A stretch of 64,000 bases of DNA from Escherichia phage pEC-M719-6WT.2, in the sequence record OQ845958.1, one strand, 5' to 3'. Of the stretch, positions 2,910 to 40,837 are shown one piece after another. How positions within the stretch are numbered: the stretch's first letter is position 1; each line of letters opens with the position of its first letter. The notes below the pieces were generated by a model. It worked only from the letters and a program-made list of their open reading frames with translations. It was not told the origin of the DNA and searched no databases. The translations under genes and the position numbers were made by a program.

Positions 2910-3183
2910 TTTTGATACACAGAAAACTGAATCGCCTTCCGGGGCGATTAGTAAGCAGCAAAACGGGCTTGATATTGAAGCCATGGTTGAGTCAACTGAA
3001 ATGTCTTATCTGGAAGCTGCGACTGCCTGGTTGGAAGAACGTGGAATTCCTGAAGGCAATTTTGCACGATACATTCCTGCGGGAATCATTGATAAGATTA
3101 TGAATGAAGCATATGATGATAACCTGCTTCGCCCAAGTATGTCTCGTACACAGAAAACTAATACGCTGGACTTTTTGTTATGA
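2890..3183 (+). CDS. 33: late-transcription accessory protein gp33 (start taken at internal ATG; ORF-track frame begins 2797)
   Basis: Position between dsbA and 59 as in T4; N-terminal extension in the ORF track overlaps dsbA and is probably not translated. Confidence 0.55.
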   Translation: MMSSLVNFDTQKTESPSGAISKQQNGLDIEAMVESTEMSYLEAATAWLEERGIPEGNFARYIPAGIIDKIMNEAYDDNLLRPSMSRTQKTNTLDFLL

Positions 3184-3848
3184 TTACGATTCGCATGCCT
3201 CCAAATAACAACCGATACATAAATGGTAAATCAGTATATCAACTGTACTTATCCATCAAACAGCATTTTTCGGGTCGTTATGATATTATCAAATATAACT
3301 GGACCATGCGAATCTCCGATAGTGCTTATCAAAAACGTCGCGATAAGTATTTTTTCGAAAAGCTTAGTGATAAGTACACTCTCAAAGAATTAACGTTAAT
3401 ATTCATGTCAAACCTGGTCGCGAACCAGGATGCATGGATAGGTGATATAAGCGATGCTGATGCTCTGATATTTTATCGAGAATACATTGGCAGACTTAAA
3501 AGAATTAAACAAGTATACGAAGATGATATAAAGAATATCTATTACTTCAGTAAGAAAGTCGAAGTCAAATCGCTTCAAGAGATTTTCGAGTATAATACTA
3601 AAGTAAACACAAGTTATATTTTCAAACTTCTCCAATCGAATGTTATCTCATTTGAAACGTTTTGTTTGCTTGATTCATTTTTAGATATTATAAATAAACA
3701 TGATGAGCAGACTAACGACTTGGTTTGGGAAAAGTATTCAACCAAACTAAATGCATATAAGAAAATCTTAAATATAGATTCTCTTGAAGCTCGTAAATTG
3801 TTCATCGAGACCGTTAAAAACTGTCAAATAACGCTTCAAGCACTTTGA
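3180..3848 (+). CDS. 59: helicase loader gp59
   Basis: 222 aa; strong similarity to T4 gp59 from memory (YNWxMRxSDxAYQKRRDKYFFxKLS, LVANQDAWIGDISDADAL). Confidence 0.9.
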   Translation: MITIRMPPNNNRYINGKSVYQLYLSIKQHFSGRYDIIKYNWTMRISDSAYQKRRDKYFFEKLSDKYTLKELTLIFMSNLVANQDAWIGDISDADALIFYREYIGRLKRIKQVYEDDIKNIYYFSKKVEVKSLQEIFEYNTKVNTSYIFKLLQSNVISFETFCLLDSFLDIINKHDEQTNDLVWEKYSTKLNAYKKILNIDSLEARKLFIETVKNCQITLQAL

Positions 3849-4824: not shown

Positions 4825-4853
4825 AGGGGACCTTCGGGTCCCTTTTTTATTTT
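4825..4853 (+). terminator. intrinsic terminator (GGGACC-UUCG-GGUCCC hairpin + U-tract)
   Basis: ggggaccttcgggtccc followed by ttttttatttt immediately after the gene 32 stop. Confidence 0.7.
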
Positions 4854-5641: not shown

Positions 5642-6073
5642 ATGGAAACTGGTAAATTTTACGTATTAGACCCCGCTGCCAAAAAACAATTCATCGCTGA
5701 TAGTCCTGATGACAATTCGTGCATGGTCAGGTTGATGGAACAACATGGCAATTCCTTCAAAGTCCTGGATATGTGTTATATTGAAGGTGATTATTTTGTT
5801 GAAAAAGTTGAAATGAAAGATGGCACCATCCTGAATAGTATGGGTGGTGCTGATGAGTACTTTGAACTCGCTGGATGGGAATTCTGTCACTTCCTGGAAG
5901 TTGATGGCGATGCACCTGTTGATACCCAAACCATTCATGTGCAGGTAAATCACAAAAATGCGGCAGAAGTTGATGGCGATGCACCTGTTGATACCCAAAC
6001 CATTCATGTGCAGGTAAATCATAAAAATGCCGCAGAAGTCATTGCACTGATTAAAGCAACTTTTGGGGTCTAA
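5642..6073 (+). CDS. hypothetical protein carrying an internal 23-aa tandem duplication (ORF-track frame starts 5573)
   Basis: Internal ATG with GAGGAAA ribosome-binding site; contains EVDGDAPVDTQTIHVQVNHKNAA twice in tandem. Confidence 0.55.
   Translation: METGKFYVLDPAAKKQFIADSPDDNSCMVRLMEQHGNSFKVLDMCYIEGDYFVEKVEMKDGTILNSMGGADEYFELAGWEFCHFLEVDGDAPVDTQTIHVQVNHKNAAEVDGDAPVDTQTIHVQVNHKNAAEVIALIKATFGV
5897..6034 (+). repeat. 69-bp in-frame tandem duplication (2 copies, about 2 mismatches)
   Basis: gaagttgatggcgatgcacctgttgatacccaaaccattcatgtgcaggtaaatca(c/t)aaaaatgc(g/c)gca repeated head-to-tail. Confidence 0.9.
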
Positions 6074-22153: not shown

Positions 22154-22183
22154 GTTTACAACAGGGTTGGTCCAGTGCATAAT
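22154..22183 (+). promoter_or_regulatory. early promoter cassette (GTTTACAA ... CATAAT)
   Basis: ggggtttacaa, 17 nt, cataatgattccatactgagtta; leader nearly identical to the cassette at 46373-46420. Confidence 0.5.
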
Positions 22184-37473: not shown

Positions 37474-37641
37474 ATGTCAGATAAGATTTGTGTTGTCTGT
37501 AAAACTCCAATCGATTCTGCATTGGTTGTGGATACAGACCAAGGTCCGGTGCATCCGGGCGCCTGTTATAATTATGTTCAGAGTTTGCCAGTTACGGAAA
37601 ATACAGAAGAGCAACTGAACGAGACCCAACTTTTAATTTAG
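37474..37641 (+). CDS. small CxxC protein (55 aa), not in ORF track
   Basis: ATG preceded by strong ribosome-binding site GAGGAGACAATC; CVVC motif; followed by terminator. Confidence 0.4.
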   Translation: MSDKICVVCKTPIDSALVVDTDQGPVHPGACYNYVQSLPVTENTEEQLNETQLLI

Positions 37642-37660
37642 CTAGTGTTGTTAACCATTT

Positions 37661-37700
37661 TTGGTTTTGCCCCTTCCTTTTGGTTGGGGCCTTTTTATTT
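37661..37700 (+). terminator. intrinsic terminator
   Basis: gccccttccttttggttggggc followed by ctttttattt. Confidence 0.5.
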
Positions 37701-37926
37701 AGAAATCTTCGTCTTCGTCGTCGTCCATATCCTCAAGCTCGGCGCGTTTACCGGCAAGAGCATCACGAACACTGATATCATCGGAATCTTTTAGTTCAGC
37801 TTCTTTGCTGCGTTTTTTATAATAGCCTTCCAACTCCTTCAGACCGTCCATGGTCTGACAGGAACCAATCTTAGCCATAAAGCCTTCAATTGATGCTTCG
37901 TACATAATTTCTTCGAAGGATTTCAT
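37699..37926 (-). CDS. UvsW.1-like small acidic protein
   Basis: 75 aa directly downstream (minus strand) of the uvsW region, as T4 uvsW.1; acidic C-terminus. No sequence memory to confirm. Confidence 0.5.
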   Translation of the reverse strand: MKSFEEIMYEASIEGFMAKIGSCQTMDGLKELEGYYKKRSKEAELKDSDDISVRDALAGKRAELEDMDDDEDEDF

Positions 37927-38621
37927 TATATTTCCACCTGTTTAATTAAATTTCTGATTTTATATAAAGAAAGCCCCGTTGCTACAGAAGCTTGCTTCAT
38001 CGAACCATATTCAATCCCGTTTAAAACCACTTTCTTAGCGGCAGGATTTTTGGATGGGTCTTTATAACGTTCTTTTGCTTTATCTGAAATTTTCTTTGAT
38101 GCTTCTGGTGTATGTGATTTACCATACATCCAATTACCTTCACCTTTATTTCTTTCAGATATAGCTTGACATTGTGCTTGAGAGTATTTATACGGATTCG
38201 CTTTCTTTGTCGCAGATATTTTATCGGCCCAAGTTATTTTGCGACCCTTCAATAATTGGCTCATATATTCTTTATGTTCTTCAGTATGGTGCTTACCATA
38301 AAAAGGATTACCTTCACCAGTTTGAAGAGCTGACATTTGCCTACGCTCCCATCCATACGATTTATTAAATTGTCGTTGATGTGTCCGAGAGCTCATACCC
38401 ATAGCAATGACGGCCTTTATAAGACCGTAATGATTAGGATGAATTTTGGCCAATAATTTATGTGCAATAAAATGTTCTTCCGGAGTAAGGTTGACTCTGT
38501 TTTCTTGTGTATCAGGTCCACCCATACATTCTGGAATAATATGGTGAGATTCCGTATATCCAATTGGTTTGGAAGCCTTTCGGCTCCCAATTAAATCATC
38601 ATATATTTTTTGATAATTCAA
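37926..38621 (-). CDS. free-standing HNH homing endonuclease (HNH + NUMOD3-like repeats + C-terminal HTH), apparent TTG start
   Basis: 231 aa; ESHHIIPECMGGPDTQENRVNLTPEEHFIAHK; two GEGNxxYGKxHTxExxKxxS repeats; C-terminal GIEYGSMKQASVATGLSLYKIRN. Start/stop overlap uvsW and uvsW.1. Confidence 0.8.
   Translation of the reverse strand: MNYQKIYDDLIGSRKASKPIGYTESHHIIPECMGGPDTQENRVNLTPEEHFIAHKLLAKIHPNHYGLIKAVIAMGMSSRTHQRQFNKSYGWERRQMSALQTGEGNPFYGKHHTEEHKEYMSQLLKGRKITWADKISATKKANPYKYSQAQCQAISERNKGEGNWMYGKSHTPEASKKISDKAKERYKDPSKNPAAKKVVLNGIEYGSMKQASVATGLSLYKIRNLIKQVEI
37930..37948. repeat. 19-bp direct repeat copy 1 (atttccacctgtttaatta), at the 3' end of the HNH gene
   Basis: Exact copy of the sequence at 38622-38640; encodes KQVEI on the minus strand. 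Confidence 0.85.
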
Positions 38622-40117
38622 ATTTCCACCTGTTTAATTACATAGTTAAACCGTTCATCAGCATATCTTTGTATACGTTCAAGGCCATGCTTTAGGGCAA
38701 AGTTCAAATGAACATATTTCTTTTTAGCATTTGCCGATTTAGGTTTAACACCCATATCGTCAACGATATCAAAAACGTTTGCTTGTGATTTGGATTCATG
38801 TTTTCGAAGCACGCGGCCAATTGTCTGGAGTACAATTACCTTTGACTTGACCGGGTGAGCGAAAATAATATGATGGAGGTTTTTAACGGAAATACCCGTC
38901 GAGAATACACCGTATGAAGCTACAACAATAATTCCTTTTCCATTCTCTGCCATGACCTTTAATGCATTACGAGTTTCGGTATCAACTTCCCCGGAAACAT
39001 AATACACTTTCTCATGACCAGCTTCCTTAAGCATTTCAAACATCGATTTGCCATGCTCGATATTCTTAAACATCAAAAAGACGTTTTCATCTTTTTTAGC
39101 AAGCTTGAGAGCAAGATTTGTTACCCATTTATTTCGGCGTGTAGCTTTTGTAATTACCTTAATTTCATCCTGATAAGTTTTACCTTTCATTTTAACGGTA
39201 AATTCATCAGGGTAACGAAGGAAAATACTATTTATTTTAAGGTCAGTAACCTGTCCATCTTCCATCAATTTAGATGTGGATACTGGTTTAAAGATATCAC
39301 CAAACAGACCCATATATTGCATAAGGTTGGCTTTGCCGTCACGGAGTGAACCTGACAAACCAAATTTAAACGTACAATTCGTAAGGCCTTCGATAACCGT
39401 CGAAATTGATTTACCTGTCGCCATATGACATTCGTCATTCATAAACTGGCCAAACTGTTCAAACCATTCTTTAGGTTGTTTTACAGCCGTCTGATAAGTC
39501 GATACATAAATCATCGCATCAGAATCGCGTTTGGTACCAGAACGAATACCCAGACAAGCTTCACGAGGGAACAGACGATAATCAACAAAGTCATTAATCA
39601 TCTGGTCAACGAGCGCAGTTGTAGGAACAAGGATAAGTACTTTGCCTTCATAGTTCTCGAGATAATATCGCGCCAGAAGCGCCTGGATGAGACTTTTACC
39701 TGCAGACGTAGGTAAGTTCAGAATCTTTCTTCTGTTGACCAGACCATCATATACGGCGTCAGATTGATACCAATGGGGAGTTATCTTGGTATTGCCTGAA
39801 TAGATTTCTTTTGACTCGACCCATTTGTCGAATTCTTCGCGAGAGATTTCTTCTTTCTCTGTGATTTGTGGGTCAATCCAGAATGAATAGCCAAACTGGT
39901 CAGCGAACTTTTTAATTTGATTAACCAAACCGTATGGTAATTTACGATTGTAATCCAGGAGGCGGATTCGTCCGTCCCAAACTCCCTGCTTGAATTTTGG
40001 ATTGAAGCGATAGTTTTCAGCTTCGAAGCTGAAGTAATCACGGAGTTCGTAGAAGATTCCATCTTCACATTCAACATGCACGTGACTAAAATTTAGAAAG
40101 TTGATTTTAATATCCAT
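38618..40117 (-). CDS. uvsW: UvsW ATP-dependent DNA/RNA helicase (start at internal ATG; ORF track extends to 40156)
   Basis: About 499 aa from MDIKINF; helicase motifs NLPTSAGKS, DECH, GLSGSLRDGKA; matches T4 UvsW from memory. The ORF-track start lies upstream of the late promoter. Confidence 0.95.
   Translation of the reverse strand: MDIKINFLNFSHVHVECEDGIFYELRDYFSFEAENYRFNPKFKQGVWDGRIRLLDYNRKLPYGLVNQIKKFADQFGYSFWIDPQITEKEEISREEFDKWVESKEIYSGNTKITPHWYQSDAVYDGLVNRRKILNLPTSAGKSLIQALLARYYLENYEGKVLILVPTTALVDQMINDFVDYRLFPREACLGIRSGTKRDSDAMIYVSTYQTAVKQPKEWFEQFGQFMNDECHMATGKSISTVIEGLTNCTFKFGLSGSLRDGKANLMQYMGLFGDIFKPVSTSKLMEDGQVTDLKINSIFLRYPDEFTVKMKGKTYQDEIKVITKATRRNKWVTNLALKLAKKDENVFLMFKNIEHGKSMFEMLKEAGHEKVYYVSGEVDTETRNALKVMAENGKGIIVVASYGVFSTGISVKNLHHIIFAHPVKSKVIVLQTIGRVLRKHESKSQANVFDIVDDMGVKPKSANAKKKYVHLNFALKHGLERIQRYADERFNYVIKQVEI
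38622..38640. repeat. 19-bp direct repeat copy 2 (atttccacctgtttaatta), at the 3' end of uvsW
   Basis: Exact copy; both uvsW and the HNH protein end in the peptide KQVEI followed by stop. Confidence 0.85.
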
Positions 40118-40144
40118 GATGATTCCAAGGTAATAAATATATCT

Positions 40145-40152
40145 ATATTTAT
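40145..40152 (-). promoter_or_regulatory. late promoter (TATAAATA on minus strand) for uvsW
   Basis: Forward TATTTATA about 28 nt upstream of the uvsW ATG. Confidence 0.5.
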
Positions 40153-40171
40153 ACACTAACCGAGGTTCATC

Positions 40172-40837
40172 ATGATTGACAAGAACTACATTGAGGAAAT
40201 TCGTGTCCTCGAGAAAAAAGAAGCCAAAGAAAAATTAGCCGAATACGCAGCATCACTTGGCGTTGATGTTAAGAAAACAAAAACCTTTGATAATATGTTG
40301 GCTGACCTGGAAGCAGGACTTAAAGCATTTGCTGACATGCCTATGCCTGATGATAATGAAGGTCTGAGCATCACTGACCTTATCGATGCCGACGATGAAT
40401 TGTCAGGTGCTAAATTTGATGGCGATGAGTCAGCTAAAGAAGAAGCTAAACTCTTATTTGATGCTCCAACCGAAGCAAAGGTTGAAGTTGTTGAAATCGA
40501 AGAACCAGTTGTTTTGGTCGAAGAAGATGTTCCTTTTATCGAAGAAAAGTTCGAAGCAGCTGTTGCTAAGGTTGTCGAATCTGAAAAACCTGTATTTGCT
40601 CTGCCAAAAAACTTTAGTCCAAATCTTATGCTTATTGGCAAGAACCCTGGATTCTGTACTGTTCCGTGGTGGATTTATCAGTGGATTGCCGAGACTCCGG
40701 ATTGGAAAGAACGTCCAACTGCTTTCCCACATCCCACCGCGCATCAAACCCTATTCAGTTTGATTTATTACATCAATCGTAATGGGTCTGTTCTAGTACG
40801 AGAAACTCGTAACTCATCTTTTGTCACTTTAAAATAA
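40172..40837 (+). CDS. hypothetical acidic protein; possibly Inh-like (prohead protease inhibitor) by position
   Basis: 221 aa, highly acidic, adjacent to hoc as T4 inh is; no sequence memory to confirm. Confidence 0.3.
   Translation: MIDKNYIEEIRVLEKKEAKEKLAEYAASLGVDVKKTKTFDNMLADLEAGLKAFADMPMPDDNEGLSITDLIDADDELSGAKFDGDESAKEEAKLLFDAPTEAKVEVVEIEEPVVLVEEDVPFIEEKFEAAVAKVVESEKPVFALPKNFSPNLMLIGKNPGFCTVPWWIYQWIAETPDWKERPTAFPHPTAHQTLFSLIYYINRNGSVLVRETRNSSFVTLK

Follow-up and report, generated by a model that had tools for sequence, protein, structure and literature searches.

In the window, i.e. the whole 64-kb stretch of phage DNA analyzed here, a 231-aa open reading frame (ORF) lies on the minus strand (37926–38621), flanked by the repair-helicase gene uvsW on one side and by the small uvsW.1 gene on the other. 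This ORF is a free-standing Mob-type HNH homing endonuclease gene (HEG), with matches to PHROG 655 and NUMOD3. We interpret it, with a probability of roughly 85%, as a promoter-less, free-standing homing cassette of the Mob family that carries a replacement uvsW end, its activity and homing being predicted. A HEG between uvsW and uvsW.1 is of a known kind and has already been annotated as a homing endonuclease, including in T6. Since it is annotated at the same spot in T6 and many T4-like phages, the copy in the window is a tidy but ordinary example. The repeat architecture at its borders is apparently an undescribed detail; our search of the literature on uvsW/uvsW.1 and homing endonucleases found no description of the HEG or its repeat, and no biochemical or genetic data on the HEG were found in the literature searched.

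The window belongs to a Gaprivervirus, 98% identical to DK-13 and 97.6% identical to SP18. The uvsW gene (38618–40117, minus strand) encodes a 499-aa protein with the Pfam domains UvsW_N (9e-40), ResIII and Helicase_C; it starts with ATG at 40117, ends in NYVIKQVEI and terminates with TGA at 38620–38618. Its homologue is annotated as a 1500-nt CDS in DK-13, VR20 and VR7. The uvsW.1 gene (37699–37926, minus strand; 75 aa; Pfam UvsW-1, 1.6e-24) is 98–100% identical to that of HEG-less relatives, starting at the ATG, which overlaps the HEG stop codon. The original prediction had placed a 231-aa ORF exactly between these two genes, and the overlaps on both sides were confirmed: the TTG of the HEG (38621–38619) overlaps the uvsW TGA as ATTTGA, and its TAA (37928–37926) overlaps the uvsW.1 ATG (37926–37924) as TAATG. 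UvsW and the HEG protein have identical C-terminal ends, KQVEI followed by the stop. Initiation at the TTG overlapping the uvsW stop, also predicted, agrees with the alignment of homologues, in which M1 and Y3 are invariant and the same codon is ATG in P479, Yersinia phage P8 (YenP8) and Roth67, and GTG in one metagenomic relative. In SP18 and UPEC01, a later start at an internal ATG is annotated (199 aa), which would remove the catalytic His-His pair. The HEG ORF was intact in all 10 phages examined (dN/dS 0.03–0.15), and tblastn detected no second copy of the family within the 64-kb window.

A late-promoter-type motif, TATAAATA, is located 29 nt upstream of the uvsW ATG (40146–40153, minus strand), and motifs of this type occurred 20 times in the window, compared with 4 expected. 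By analogy with T4 late promoters, a transcript carrying uvsW, the HEG and uvsW.1 likely starts from this motif. No sigma-70 promoters or terminators above shuffled expectation were found at 37500–40300. A hairpin can be drawn over the HEG start (38621–38591; −14.2 kcal/mol, z = −1.9). We rejected it as a start-sequestering structure, as the consensus across seven lineages had only −3.3 kcal/mol and one covarying pair, and was inseparable from protein-coding conservation. Another candidate, that insertion of the HEG itself created the split between uvsW and uvsW.1 (a "gene in pieces", as in Aeh1 nrdA or T4 39/60), was unsupported within the range of our homologue search: 67 of the 68 UvsW.1 homologues found were 43–79 aa long and the remaining one was 96 aa, a fusion to the helicase was seen in none of the 68, and two ORFs, uvsW and uvsW.1, have been reported for all T4-like genomes (PMC1524935).

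Judged from its sequence and structure model, the HEG product is a T4 Mob-family HNH endonuclease with an N-terminal HNH domain, two NUMOD3 motifs and a C-terminal I-TevI-like helix-turn-helix (HTH) module. It matched PHROG 655, "homing endonuclease", at 6.4e-57, and tblastn gave 32–46% identity to genes annotated as mobD and mobE and to HEGs adjacent to nrdA. The HNH nuclease domain (residues 1–75; 38397–38621, minus strand) is supported by invariant alignment columns and by the AlphaFold2 (AF2) model of the protein (mean pLDDT 86). Among 42 homologues, the catalytic positions H26/H27, N41, H50 and H54 were invariant or nearly so, with E24, H27, N41, H50 and H54 invariant, and the model suggests a beta-beta-alpha core (strands 24–27 and 42–45, helix 47–60) with weak matches to the HNH domains of IscB, McrA, Cas8-HNH, I-HmuI and GVE2 HNH. 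The predicted HNH motif is backed by the PHROG match, the invariant residues and the modelled core, but the Pfam HNH score (13.7–15.6 bits) is below the cut-off of 21.4. The two predicted NUMOD3 repeats were recovered by Pfam as two stretches (1.1e-19; 70 bits, where the cut-off is 20.4). The Pfam tool locates the second stretch only, the best one (residues 152–179; 38085–38168, minus strand), and the boundaries of the first, NUMOD3-like motif (GNPFYGKHHTEEHK..., approximately residues 96–127; 38241–38336, minus strand) were estimated from the sequence. For the C-terminal HTH, the AF2 model has strands 198–200 and 203–205 followed by helices 208–215 and 219–229, and this module (residues 198–229; 37935–38030, minus strand) had the I-TevI DNA-binding domain (1i3j_A) as its best Foldseek match (probability 0.99, E 0.13), whereas searching the final 40 aa against Pfam returned no NUMOD1 or HTH family even at E ≤ 10. 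Half of the last helix is encoded by the repeat described below.

The 19-bp sequence ATTTCCACCTGTTTAATTA is present at 37930–37948 and 38622–38640, as had been noted from the sequence. These are its only two exact occurrences in the 64-kb window, and a third site was not found even when 3 mismatches were allowed; none of 100 shuffled sequences yielded two matches. Identity ends on both sides of the repeat (37929 T versus 38621 A; 37949 A versus 38641 C). The upstream copy (38622–38640, minus strand) encodes the last six uvsW codons (IKQVEI) and contains an SD-like AGGTGGA before the HEG TTG. The downstream copy (37930–37948, minus strand) is the native uvsW 3′ end, encodes the end of the HEG, (L)IKQVEI, carries the SD sequence and TAATG overlap for uvsW.1, and is identical to the insert-free junction of EAWsc9. 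The insert-free Gapriverviruses EAWsc9, TH57, TH54, VR20 and VR7 have a junction ending in TATGTAATTAAACAGGTGGAAATATAATGAAATCC, which corresponds to the window minus one repeat copy and the intervening 673 bp. Thus, in the alignment with insert-less relatives that had been proposed as a check, removing the 692-bp insert gave their junction to the base. Exact repeats of this length are by no means unusual in the window, which contains 11 maximal pairs of at least 19 bp. Terminator hairpins and RBS/start-codon contexts are among the other pairs, and the 19-bp repeat is likewise an RBS-containing gene end.

Comparison among genera suggests where each copy originates. In four lineages, the HEG finishes with the codons and stop that are native to the uvsW gene of that lineage. 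Its tail matches the native UvsW tail, which reads KQVEI in Gaprivervirus, KQVDL in Dhakavirus and KTVNL in Tequatrovirus; in the metagenomic contig L019, KEVKL terminates both UvsW and the HEG. The upstream copy, which ends uvsW in HEG-carrying genomes, is often divergent and shares a AAAGAGGT (K-E-V) pattern in UP19, T6/HY03, L018 and L019. In UP19, T6/HY03 and P479/YenP8, it is the upstream copy that diverges, the downstream one being the genus-native sequence. The extent of the repeat varies by lineage: it spans approximately 19 bp in the window and 16 bp in L019, is degenerate in UP19, T6 and P479, and is all but missing from Roth67 and L018. Because the two copies in the window are identical, a cassette-borne replacement end is visible only in the other lineages. 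These sequences suggest a cassette that comes with a substitute for the uvsW 3′ end, and a HEG whose frame continues into the native end that was displaced. The original prediction of a homing footprint with a regenerated uvsW 3′ end stands as to the exact junction and is refined as to the two copies, the upstream one being the likely replacement and the downstream one the native end.

Homologues of the HEG were found at this junction in Dhakavirus, in T6 and other Tequatrovirus, in Klebsiella, Proteus and Morganella phages and in metagenomic T4-like contigs. The order UvsW, HEG, UvsW.1 is kept in Dhakavirus UP19, T6, HY03, Klebsiella phage Roth67 and two metagenomic contigs, with HEG identities of 49–85%. 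In P479 and YenP8, this site is taken by a second, different HEG. The original prediction had pointed to the lack of an endonuclease gene at this position in T4; the T4 uvsW/uvsW.1 junction indeed has no HEG, but the element is not unusual, as T6 and dozens of other T-even-type phages carry an annotated homologue there, and most of the best 60 nucleotide matches are annotated "homing endonuclease | DNA helicase". Public annotation is inconsistent, the gene appearing as a hypothetical protein, a group I intron endonuclease, "GIY-YIG" or with a truncated start. The uvsW region matched approximately 780 phage genomes. Among Gaprivervirus records, the HEG was found in five and was missing from approximately 25 flank-identical relatives. 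Vertical fixation, against which the original prediction had set homing, was not observed, as presence or absence of the HEG varies among phages whose flanks are 95–98% identical. When Gaprivervirus is compared with Dhakavirus, the HEG shows the same divergence as its surroundings, with approximately 80% nucleotide identity for the HEG and approximately 80% for the 2-kb query that includes it.

Identity between HEG-carrying and HEG-less phages was then computed in 60-nt bins upstream from the uvsW stop. In all four pairs, a divergent tract of 60–300 nt was present at the end of uvsW, and on the uvsW side only. For T6/T4, the bins nearest the stop were 77, 68 and 82% identical and those further upstream 100%; for UP19/VR5, 80, 73, 75, 87 and 80%, then mostly 82–98%; for P479/EAWsc9, 78, 87, 75 and 83%, then 92–100%; and for the window/EAWsc9, a single bin of 83%, then 90–100%. 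In the three clean pairs, uvsW.1 was 92–100% identical from the ATG; the T6/T4 bins of uvsW.1 are unreliable because the annotated T6 start differs. In the window, the HEG-linked polymorphism includes a block within the last approximately 13 uvsW codons (38645–38660, minus strand) with six substitutions in 16 bp relative to most HEG-less relatives; SNPs also lie at 38783–38786 and 37915. The HEG-less phage VR7 has the HEG-linked uvsW haplotype, so the flank block is not strictly diagnostic for the HEG. Sharp divergence in the end of uvsW but not in uvsW.1 is the pattern of one-sided co-conversion.

As a whole, this information leads us to propose a model in which nuclease activity, target position, translational coupling and homing are all predicted. 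The HEG would ride on the uvsW late transcript and would be translated, probably at a low level, from the TTG overlapping the uvsW stop codon. During mixed infection, its product would nick or cleave the allele that lacks the HEG, most likely within the final few hundred bases of uvsW, and recombinational repair would transfer the HEG, along with the neighboring 3′ part of uvsW, to the recipient. On its 5′ side, the cassette would supply a substitute for the final six uvsW codons, together with a new stop and the SD-like sequence for the HEG. On its 3′ side, the HEG frame would enter the displaced native uvsW end and borrow its last codons and stop, and this displaced end would still give uvsW.1 its ribosome-binding site and stop/start overlap. 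Since the HEG carries a spare copy of the last 19 bases of uvsW, neither uvsW nor uvsW.1 is damaged.

The most serious alternative, although we regard it as unlikely, is that the HEG is an old, vertically inherited accessory gene, perhaps a domesticated nuclease working with UvsW, which no longer homes and has been lost repeatedly by deletion between the repeats. Long vertical residence and repeated loss would account for much of the HEG distribution without recent homing. The HEGs of Gaprivervirus and Dhakavirus share 79.8–82% nucleotide identity (dS 1.27), compared with 79.5–79.8% for the 2-kb region containing them, the gene is tightly overlapped with both neighbors, the 19-bp direct repeat would permit precise loss, and VR7 has the HEG-linked flank haplotype without a HEG. 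Strong purifying selection (dN/dS 0.03–0.15) points in the same direction but is also expected of an active HEG, and the contrary points fit ongoing homing. Sporadic presence among 95–98% identical phages argues against vertical inheritance, as do the foreign-looking uvsW 3′ tract that accompanies the HEG in each of four independent pairs (bounded by 100% identity in T6/T4), the different HEG of P479 and YenP8 at the same site, and the recurrence of the K-E-V replacement end in distant lineages.

The remaining alternatives concern the repeat. That it is a target-site duplication, left by a staggered cut and fill-in in a transposition-like event at first landing, rather than a functional replacement end, seems very improbable. 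A perfect direct repeat does lie exactly at both insert borders in the window and near-identical relatives, and ectopic "transposition" of HEGs has been discussed for T4-type phages (PMC2988022). However, the HEG is always at one conserved site, the repeat differs in length and sequence by lineage rather than having a fixed length, the downstream copy continues the HEG frame and gives it its stop, and neither Pfam nor PHROG revealed a transposase domain in the HEG. HNH homing enzymes are not known to cut with a 19-nt stagger. Coincidental reuse of a common RBS/gene-end cassette, unrelated to the insertion, might be suspected from the RBS/start contexts and terminator hairpins among the other exact repeats of at least 19 bp in the window, but we give it almost no credence: the 19-mer is confined to the two insert borders, uvsW and the HEG both read it in frame as the same six residues, the HEG tail in other genera follows each genus's own uvsW tail, and the junction comparisons, in which removing the insert and one copy restores the HEG-less junction to the base, already contradict this reading.

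The homing cassette that we favor resembles T4 MobA–E in PHROG 655 membership, in the N-terminal HNH module and in its sporadic distribution among T-even-type phages. It is especially similar to mobE, between nrdA and nrdB, as a promoter-less cassette in an existing operon; overlapping stop/start codons of mobE and promoter-less mob cassettes have been described (PMC2988022), the overlap being UAAUGA in mobE (PMC2988022) and AUUUGA in the HEG. Unlike the T4 Mobs, the HEG is at the uvsW/uvsW.1 site, unoccupied in T4, starts with TTG, and has no 3′ end and stop of its own, reading instead into a duplicated host-gene 3′ end. Genes at the orthologous position in T6, Yersinia phage PST ("mobD"), HY03, ACG-C40, UP19 and SP18 (gp197) show the same overlaps and 57–99% protein identity. 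Compared with T6, UP19 and P479, in which the two copies differ, the window copy is the "cleanest", with its perfect 19-bp repeat. I-TevI and I-HmuI are intron-encoded, and the I-TevI nuclease is GIY-YIG; the structural likeness of the HEG to them is weak and model-based.

The proposed arrangement of host core, replacement 3′ end, endonuclease ORF and displaced native 3′ end is also that of the mobile ORFs (mORFs) of fungal mitochondria (Allomyces atp6; Glomus atp6, atp9, cox2 and nad3). In these, the end that was inserted is frequently of foreign origin, and the native one agrees with that of close relatives (PMC3630166), a pattern matched by UP19, T6 and P479. The HEG would work like the fungal mORF family but is not a member: fungal mORFs are organellar and encode LAGLIDADG or GIY-YIG enzymes, whereas the HEG is HNH and phage-borne; their duplications are 50–300 bp compared with approximately 19 bp; and their displaced end is usually an unexpressed relic, whereas that of the HEG is predicted to be translated as its own C-terminus and still to drive uvsW.1. 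We lean, by a small measure only, towards regarding the uvsW/uvsW.1 HEG lineage as a phage counterpart of the fungal mobile ORFs with a "replacement C-terminus". The mobile unit would comprise a new uvsW 3′ end, an RBS and a stop-less HEG, and would insert approximately 19 bp before the uvsW stop, turning the native end into part of the HEG DNA-recognition helix, its stop and the uvsW.1 RBS. The repeat would offer a precise-loss route that restores the homing site, and the perfect repeat of the window would be a homogenized version of an architecture found in several T4-like lineages and with two different HEGs.

Among T-even phages, free-standing HNH endonucleases of the Mob type are a textbook case of selfish elements, and the HEG adds little that is new in principle. 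It is a clean natural example of cost-free insertion at a gene junction that is probably translationally coupled: the insertion duplicates the last codons and RBS of uvsW, borrows the native stop and drags along a short foreign uvsW tract. For annotation, the late start in SP18 and UPEC01 cuts off the catalytic histidines, and other records misname the gene. The finding is also relevant to editing of the uvsW region and to the search for new sequence-specific nickases, and, for phylogenetic work, the terminal stretch of approximately 300 nt in uvsW is a patch of recombination.

Three genes overlap in series on the minus strand of the window: uvsW (38618-40117; Pfam UvsW_N, 9e-40, with ResIII and Helicase_C), a 231-aa ORF (37926-38621; characterized by NUMOD3, PHROGs, alignment and model) and uvsW.1 (37699-37926; Pfam UvsW-1, 1.6e-24). 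The original prediction of a homing endonuclease gene (HEG) of 231 aa between uvsW and uvsW.1, starting at a TTG that overlaps the uvsW stop, was borne out: the HEG TTG overlaps the uvsW TGA in ATTTGA, and its TAA overlaps the uvsW.1 ATG in TAATG. In a 42-sequence alignment, M1 and Y3 were unchanged in all homologues, which supports the TTG start, and the equivalent codon is ATG or GTG in P479, Yersinia phage vB_YenM_P8 (YenP8), Roth67 and one metagenomic relative. Starting at the internal ATG, as SP18 and UPEC01 are annotated, would cut His-His off the protein, which also argues for TTG; these entries (SP18 gp197, L001 1028-1627; UPEC01, L012 2027-2626) describe 199-aa products without the catalytic His-His. 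Database names vary, from "group I intron endonuclease" (UPEC01) and "hypothetical protein" (DK-13) to "GIY-YIG" for a homologue in some Klebsiella phage records.

The window contains two exact copies of the 19-mer ATTTCCACCTGTTTAATTA and no more (37930-37948 and 38622-38640), as had been claimed for the two HEG borders; no third site was found in the window even with three mismatches, and two matches were reached in 0 of 100 shuffles. Its coding strand, TAATTAAACAGGTGGAAAT, represents the last six codons (IKQVEI) common to UvsW and the HEG, confirming their shared end, and contains a Shine-Dalgarno-like AGGTGGA. Further exact repeats of at least 19 bp (19-56 bp among those listed), including terminator hairpins and RBS/start contexts, are present in the window, so that a duplicated gene end with its RBS is in keeping with the rest of this genome. 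Terminator-type hairpins GGGACCTTCGGGTCCCTTT lie at 4827, 29333 and 41988, AAAGGGCTTCGGCCCTTTTT has two copies (12803 and 26859), two 21-23-bp pairs occur at 22178/46397 and 36632/42638 (CATAATGATTCCATACTGAGTTA; GTATAATGGTTCTAGACCCTT), and a 56-bp repeat at 5897 and 5966 (spacing, 69 bp) is probably a repeated protein domain.

The window belongs to a Gaprivervirus (98.1% to DK-13, 97.6% to SP18). The same ORF was found in DK-13, UPEC01, SP18 and TH40, and was absent from about 25 other Gapriverviruses with flanks 92-97% identical. The insert-free junction of EAWsc9 reads ...TATGTAATTAAACAGGTGGAAATATAATGAAATCC; deleting 692 bp from the window, made up of a single repeat copy plus the 673 bp between the two copies, yields this junction exactly, so that the check proposed with the original prediction is passed.

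Same-junction homologues were also found in the Dhakaviruses UP19, PSD2002 and ESCO10 (~80% nt), in T6, HY03, PST, ACG-C40, UFV-AREG1 and many other Tequatroviruses, and in Klebsiella, Proteus and Morganella phages. Two metagenomic homologues (49% and 58% identity) likewise have UvsW and UvsW-1 genes as neighbours, with a 4-nt overlap on each side. T4, as stated in the original prediction, has no HEG at this junction, and a review of T4 HEGs by Edgell et al. lists none there (PMC2988022); Petrov et al. counted three mob-like HEGs in T6, positions not given (PMC2993671). The name "homing endonuclease" is already attached to these genes in most records. The rarity attributed to the element did not hold, although the prediction was otherwise correct in observation and interpretation. 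At the exact same site, Gaprivervirus P479 (L004 1027-1812) and YenP8 (L005 489-1274) carry a second HEG of 261 aa, which shares the HNH N-terminus with the window HEG and has an unrelated C-terminal half. The first 30 nt of the two genes are 90% identical and the remainder mostly 40-60%; the 261-aa protein also ends FIKQVEI*. The P479 and YenP8 sequences suggest HEG replacement, or module swapping, through recombination in the 5' start that the two genes have in common and in the duplicated uvsW end.

Across lineages, the final five to seven codons and stop of the HEG match, at the nucleotide level, the local native uvsW 3' end. In Gapriverviruses both HEG types end ...ATTAAACAGGTGGAAATATAA (KQVEI*); in Dhakaviruses the end is ...ATGAAACAGGTGGATTTATGA (KQVDL*), identical to HEG-less VR5; in Tequatroviruses it is ...AAAACAGTTAATTTATAAGGGCTTCGGCCC (KTVNL*), as in T4; and in the metagenomic contig L019 UvsW and the HEG both end KEVKL*. 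The copy terminating uvsW in HEG-containing genomes is often non-native: AAAGAGGTCCAAATTTGA in UP19, AAAGAGGTTAAACTTTGA in T6 and HY03, AAACATGTGGAACTATGA in P479, and AAAGAGGTTATTATTTGA and AAAGAGGTTAAATTGTGA in the metagenomic contigs L018 and L019. Because the K-E-V/GAGGT form recurs in distant lineages, the HEG appears to travel together with a substitute uvsW end that contains its own Shine-Dalgarno sequence; the HEG frame, lacking a 3' end of its own, would read into the displaced native uvsW end. Since both window copies are identical, the replacement end is not directly visible there; Roth67 and L018 show little repeat. The same arrangement, with a replacement 3' end after the gene core, then the endonuclease ORF and last the native 3' end, has been described for mobile ORFs in Allomyces/Glomus mitochondria (PMC3630166), which differ in involving other endonuclease families and duplications much longer than the phage repeat.

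Comparison of HEG-containing with HEG-less phages, in 60-nt bins counted upstream from the uvsW stop, revealed reduced identity nearest the stop: 77, 68 and 82% for T6/T4 (100% upstream for several hundred nt), 80, 73, 75, 87 and 80% for UP19/VR5 (mostly 82-98% upstream), 78, 87, 75 and 83% for P479/EAWsc9 (92-100% upstream) and 83% in a single bin for window/EAWsc9 (90-100% upstream). On the other side, uvsW.1 was 92-100% identical from codon 1 in three clean pairs; the T6/T4 bins there are unreliable because the annotated T6 start differs. Such a one-sided foreign tract is the expected trace of co-conversion from a cleavage site that would lie within the uvsW 3' region, and is similar to the pattern of T4 SegG and MobE, enzymes known to cleave at a distant site (PMC2988022). 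HEG-linked differences in the window form two clusters, one at 38645-38660 with six substitutions in 16 bp (of which one changes R to Q), the other at 38783-38786. At the equivalent of 38645-38660, HEG-less VR7 (L017) carries the haplotype of the HEG-containing phages; the other four HEG-less Gapriverviruses share a different one. VR7 may represent a naive susceptible allele or a past precise HEG loss via the repeat.

Pfam detected two NUMOD3 repeats (1.1e-19), as predicted, and an HNH match below threshold (13.7 bits; cut-off, 21.4). The HNH motif stands at the family level: PHROGs assigned the protein to phrog_655 "homing endonuclease" (6.4e-57), and E24, H27, N41, H50 and H54 are invariant, H26 nearly so, in the 42-sequence alignment. 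By tblastn, the HEG was 32-46% identical to annotated mobD/mobE and nrdA-adjacent HEGs of other T-even-type phages. Modelling with AlphaFold2 (mean pLDDT, 86) placed two strands and one helix in residues 24-60, helices across the NUMOD3 region and a beta-beta-helix-helix unit at the C-terminus (198-229); with this model, the top Foldseek PDB match (prob 0.99, E 0.13) was the DNA-binding domain of I-TevI, and HNH domains came next. Together these results make the HNH and NUMOD3 assignments solid at the family level, whereas the proposed C-terminal HTH, without a Pfam HTH/NUMOD1 match, is a model-based prediction. Every HEG ORF examined was intact, with dN/dS of 0.03-0.15, indicating that the protein is under selection. 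A literature search found no experimental work on the enzyme.

A late-promoter motif, TATAAATA, is located at 40146-40153 (minus strand), with 29 nt between it and the uvsW ATG downstream, and no sigma-70-like promoter or terminator stood out in a scan between uvsW and uvsW.1; it is thus probable that the HEG has no promoter and is carried along on the transcript of uvsW. As with mobE (PMC2988022), translation might plausibly be coupled and start at a low level from the overlapping TTG. A second TATAAATA motif lies inside the HEG at nt 430 (38185-38192, minus strand), ~260 nt upstream of uvsW.1; every Gaprivervirus copy, and that of UP19 despite a dS of 1.27, has it at the same place in the ORF, and it is absent from the T6, HY03, Roth67 and P479 HEGs. 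This motif could be an embedded uvsW.1 promoter, such promoters having been described for other T4 HEGs, or a chance conservation of Tyr-Lys-Tyr codons. Base-pairing is possible between codons 8-11 of the HEG and its first four codons, start codon included (UUGAAUUAUCA/UGAUGAUUUAA; 38591-38621, minus strand; MFE, -14.2 kcal/mol; z, -1.9). Seven lineages retain this pairing, largely because the sequence itself is unchanged, and a single pair covaries; the hairpin may damp translation like the Aeh1 mobE hairpin or reflect protein conservation alone.

In the T4 RefSeq entry (L010, NC_000866) uvsW is still annotated as fused (1764 nt), and the junction (~3170-3200) reads TTTAATAAGCTTCGGCCC versus TTTATAAGGGCTTCGGCCC in T6/HY03, where a stop codon precedes a GGGC/GCCC hairpin; a known sequencing error fits this difference (PMC1524935, PMC6486255). 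T4 carries the GIY-YIG HEG segE, which targets uvsW (PMC2988022), between inh and uvsW (L010 1058-1675); at the corresponding place in the window (40172-40837, plus strand) and in its relatives segE is absent, inh directly adjoining uvsW. The element described here is of a known kind, for which annotations at this site already exist in many phages, and its interest is modest; its insertion architecture is tidy, and the literature search found no description of it for phages. With segE on the inh side in T4 and the present HEG on the uvsW.1 side, uvsW is flanked by HEGs at either end in different T-even phages.
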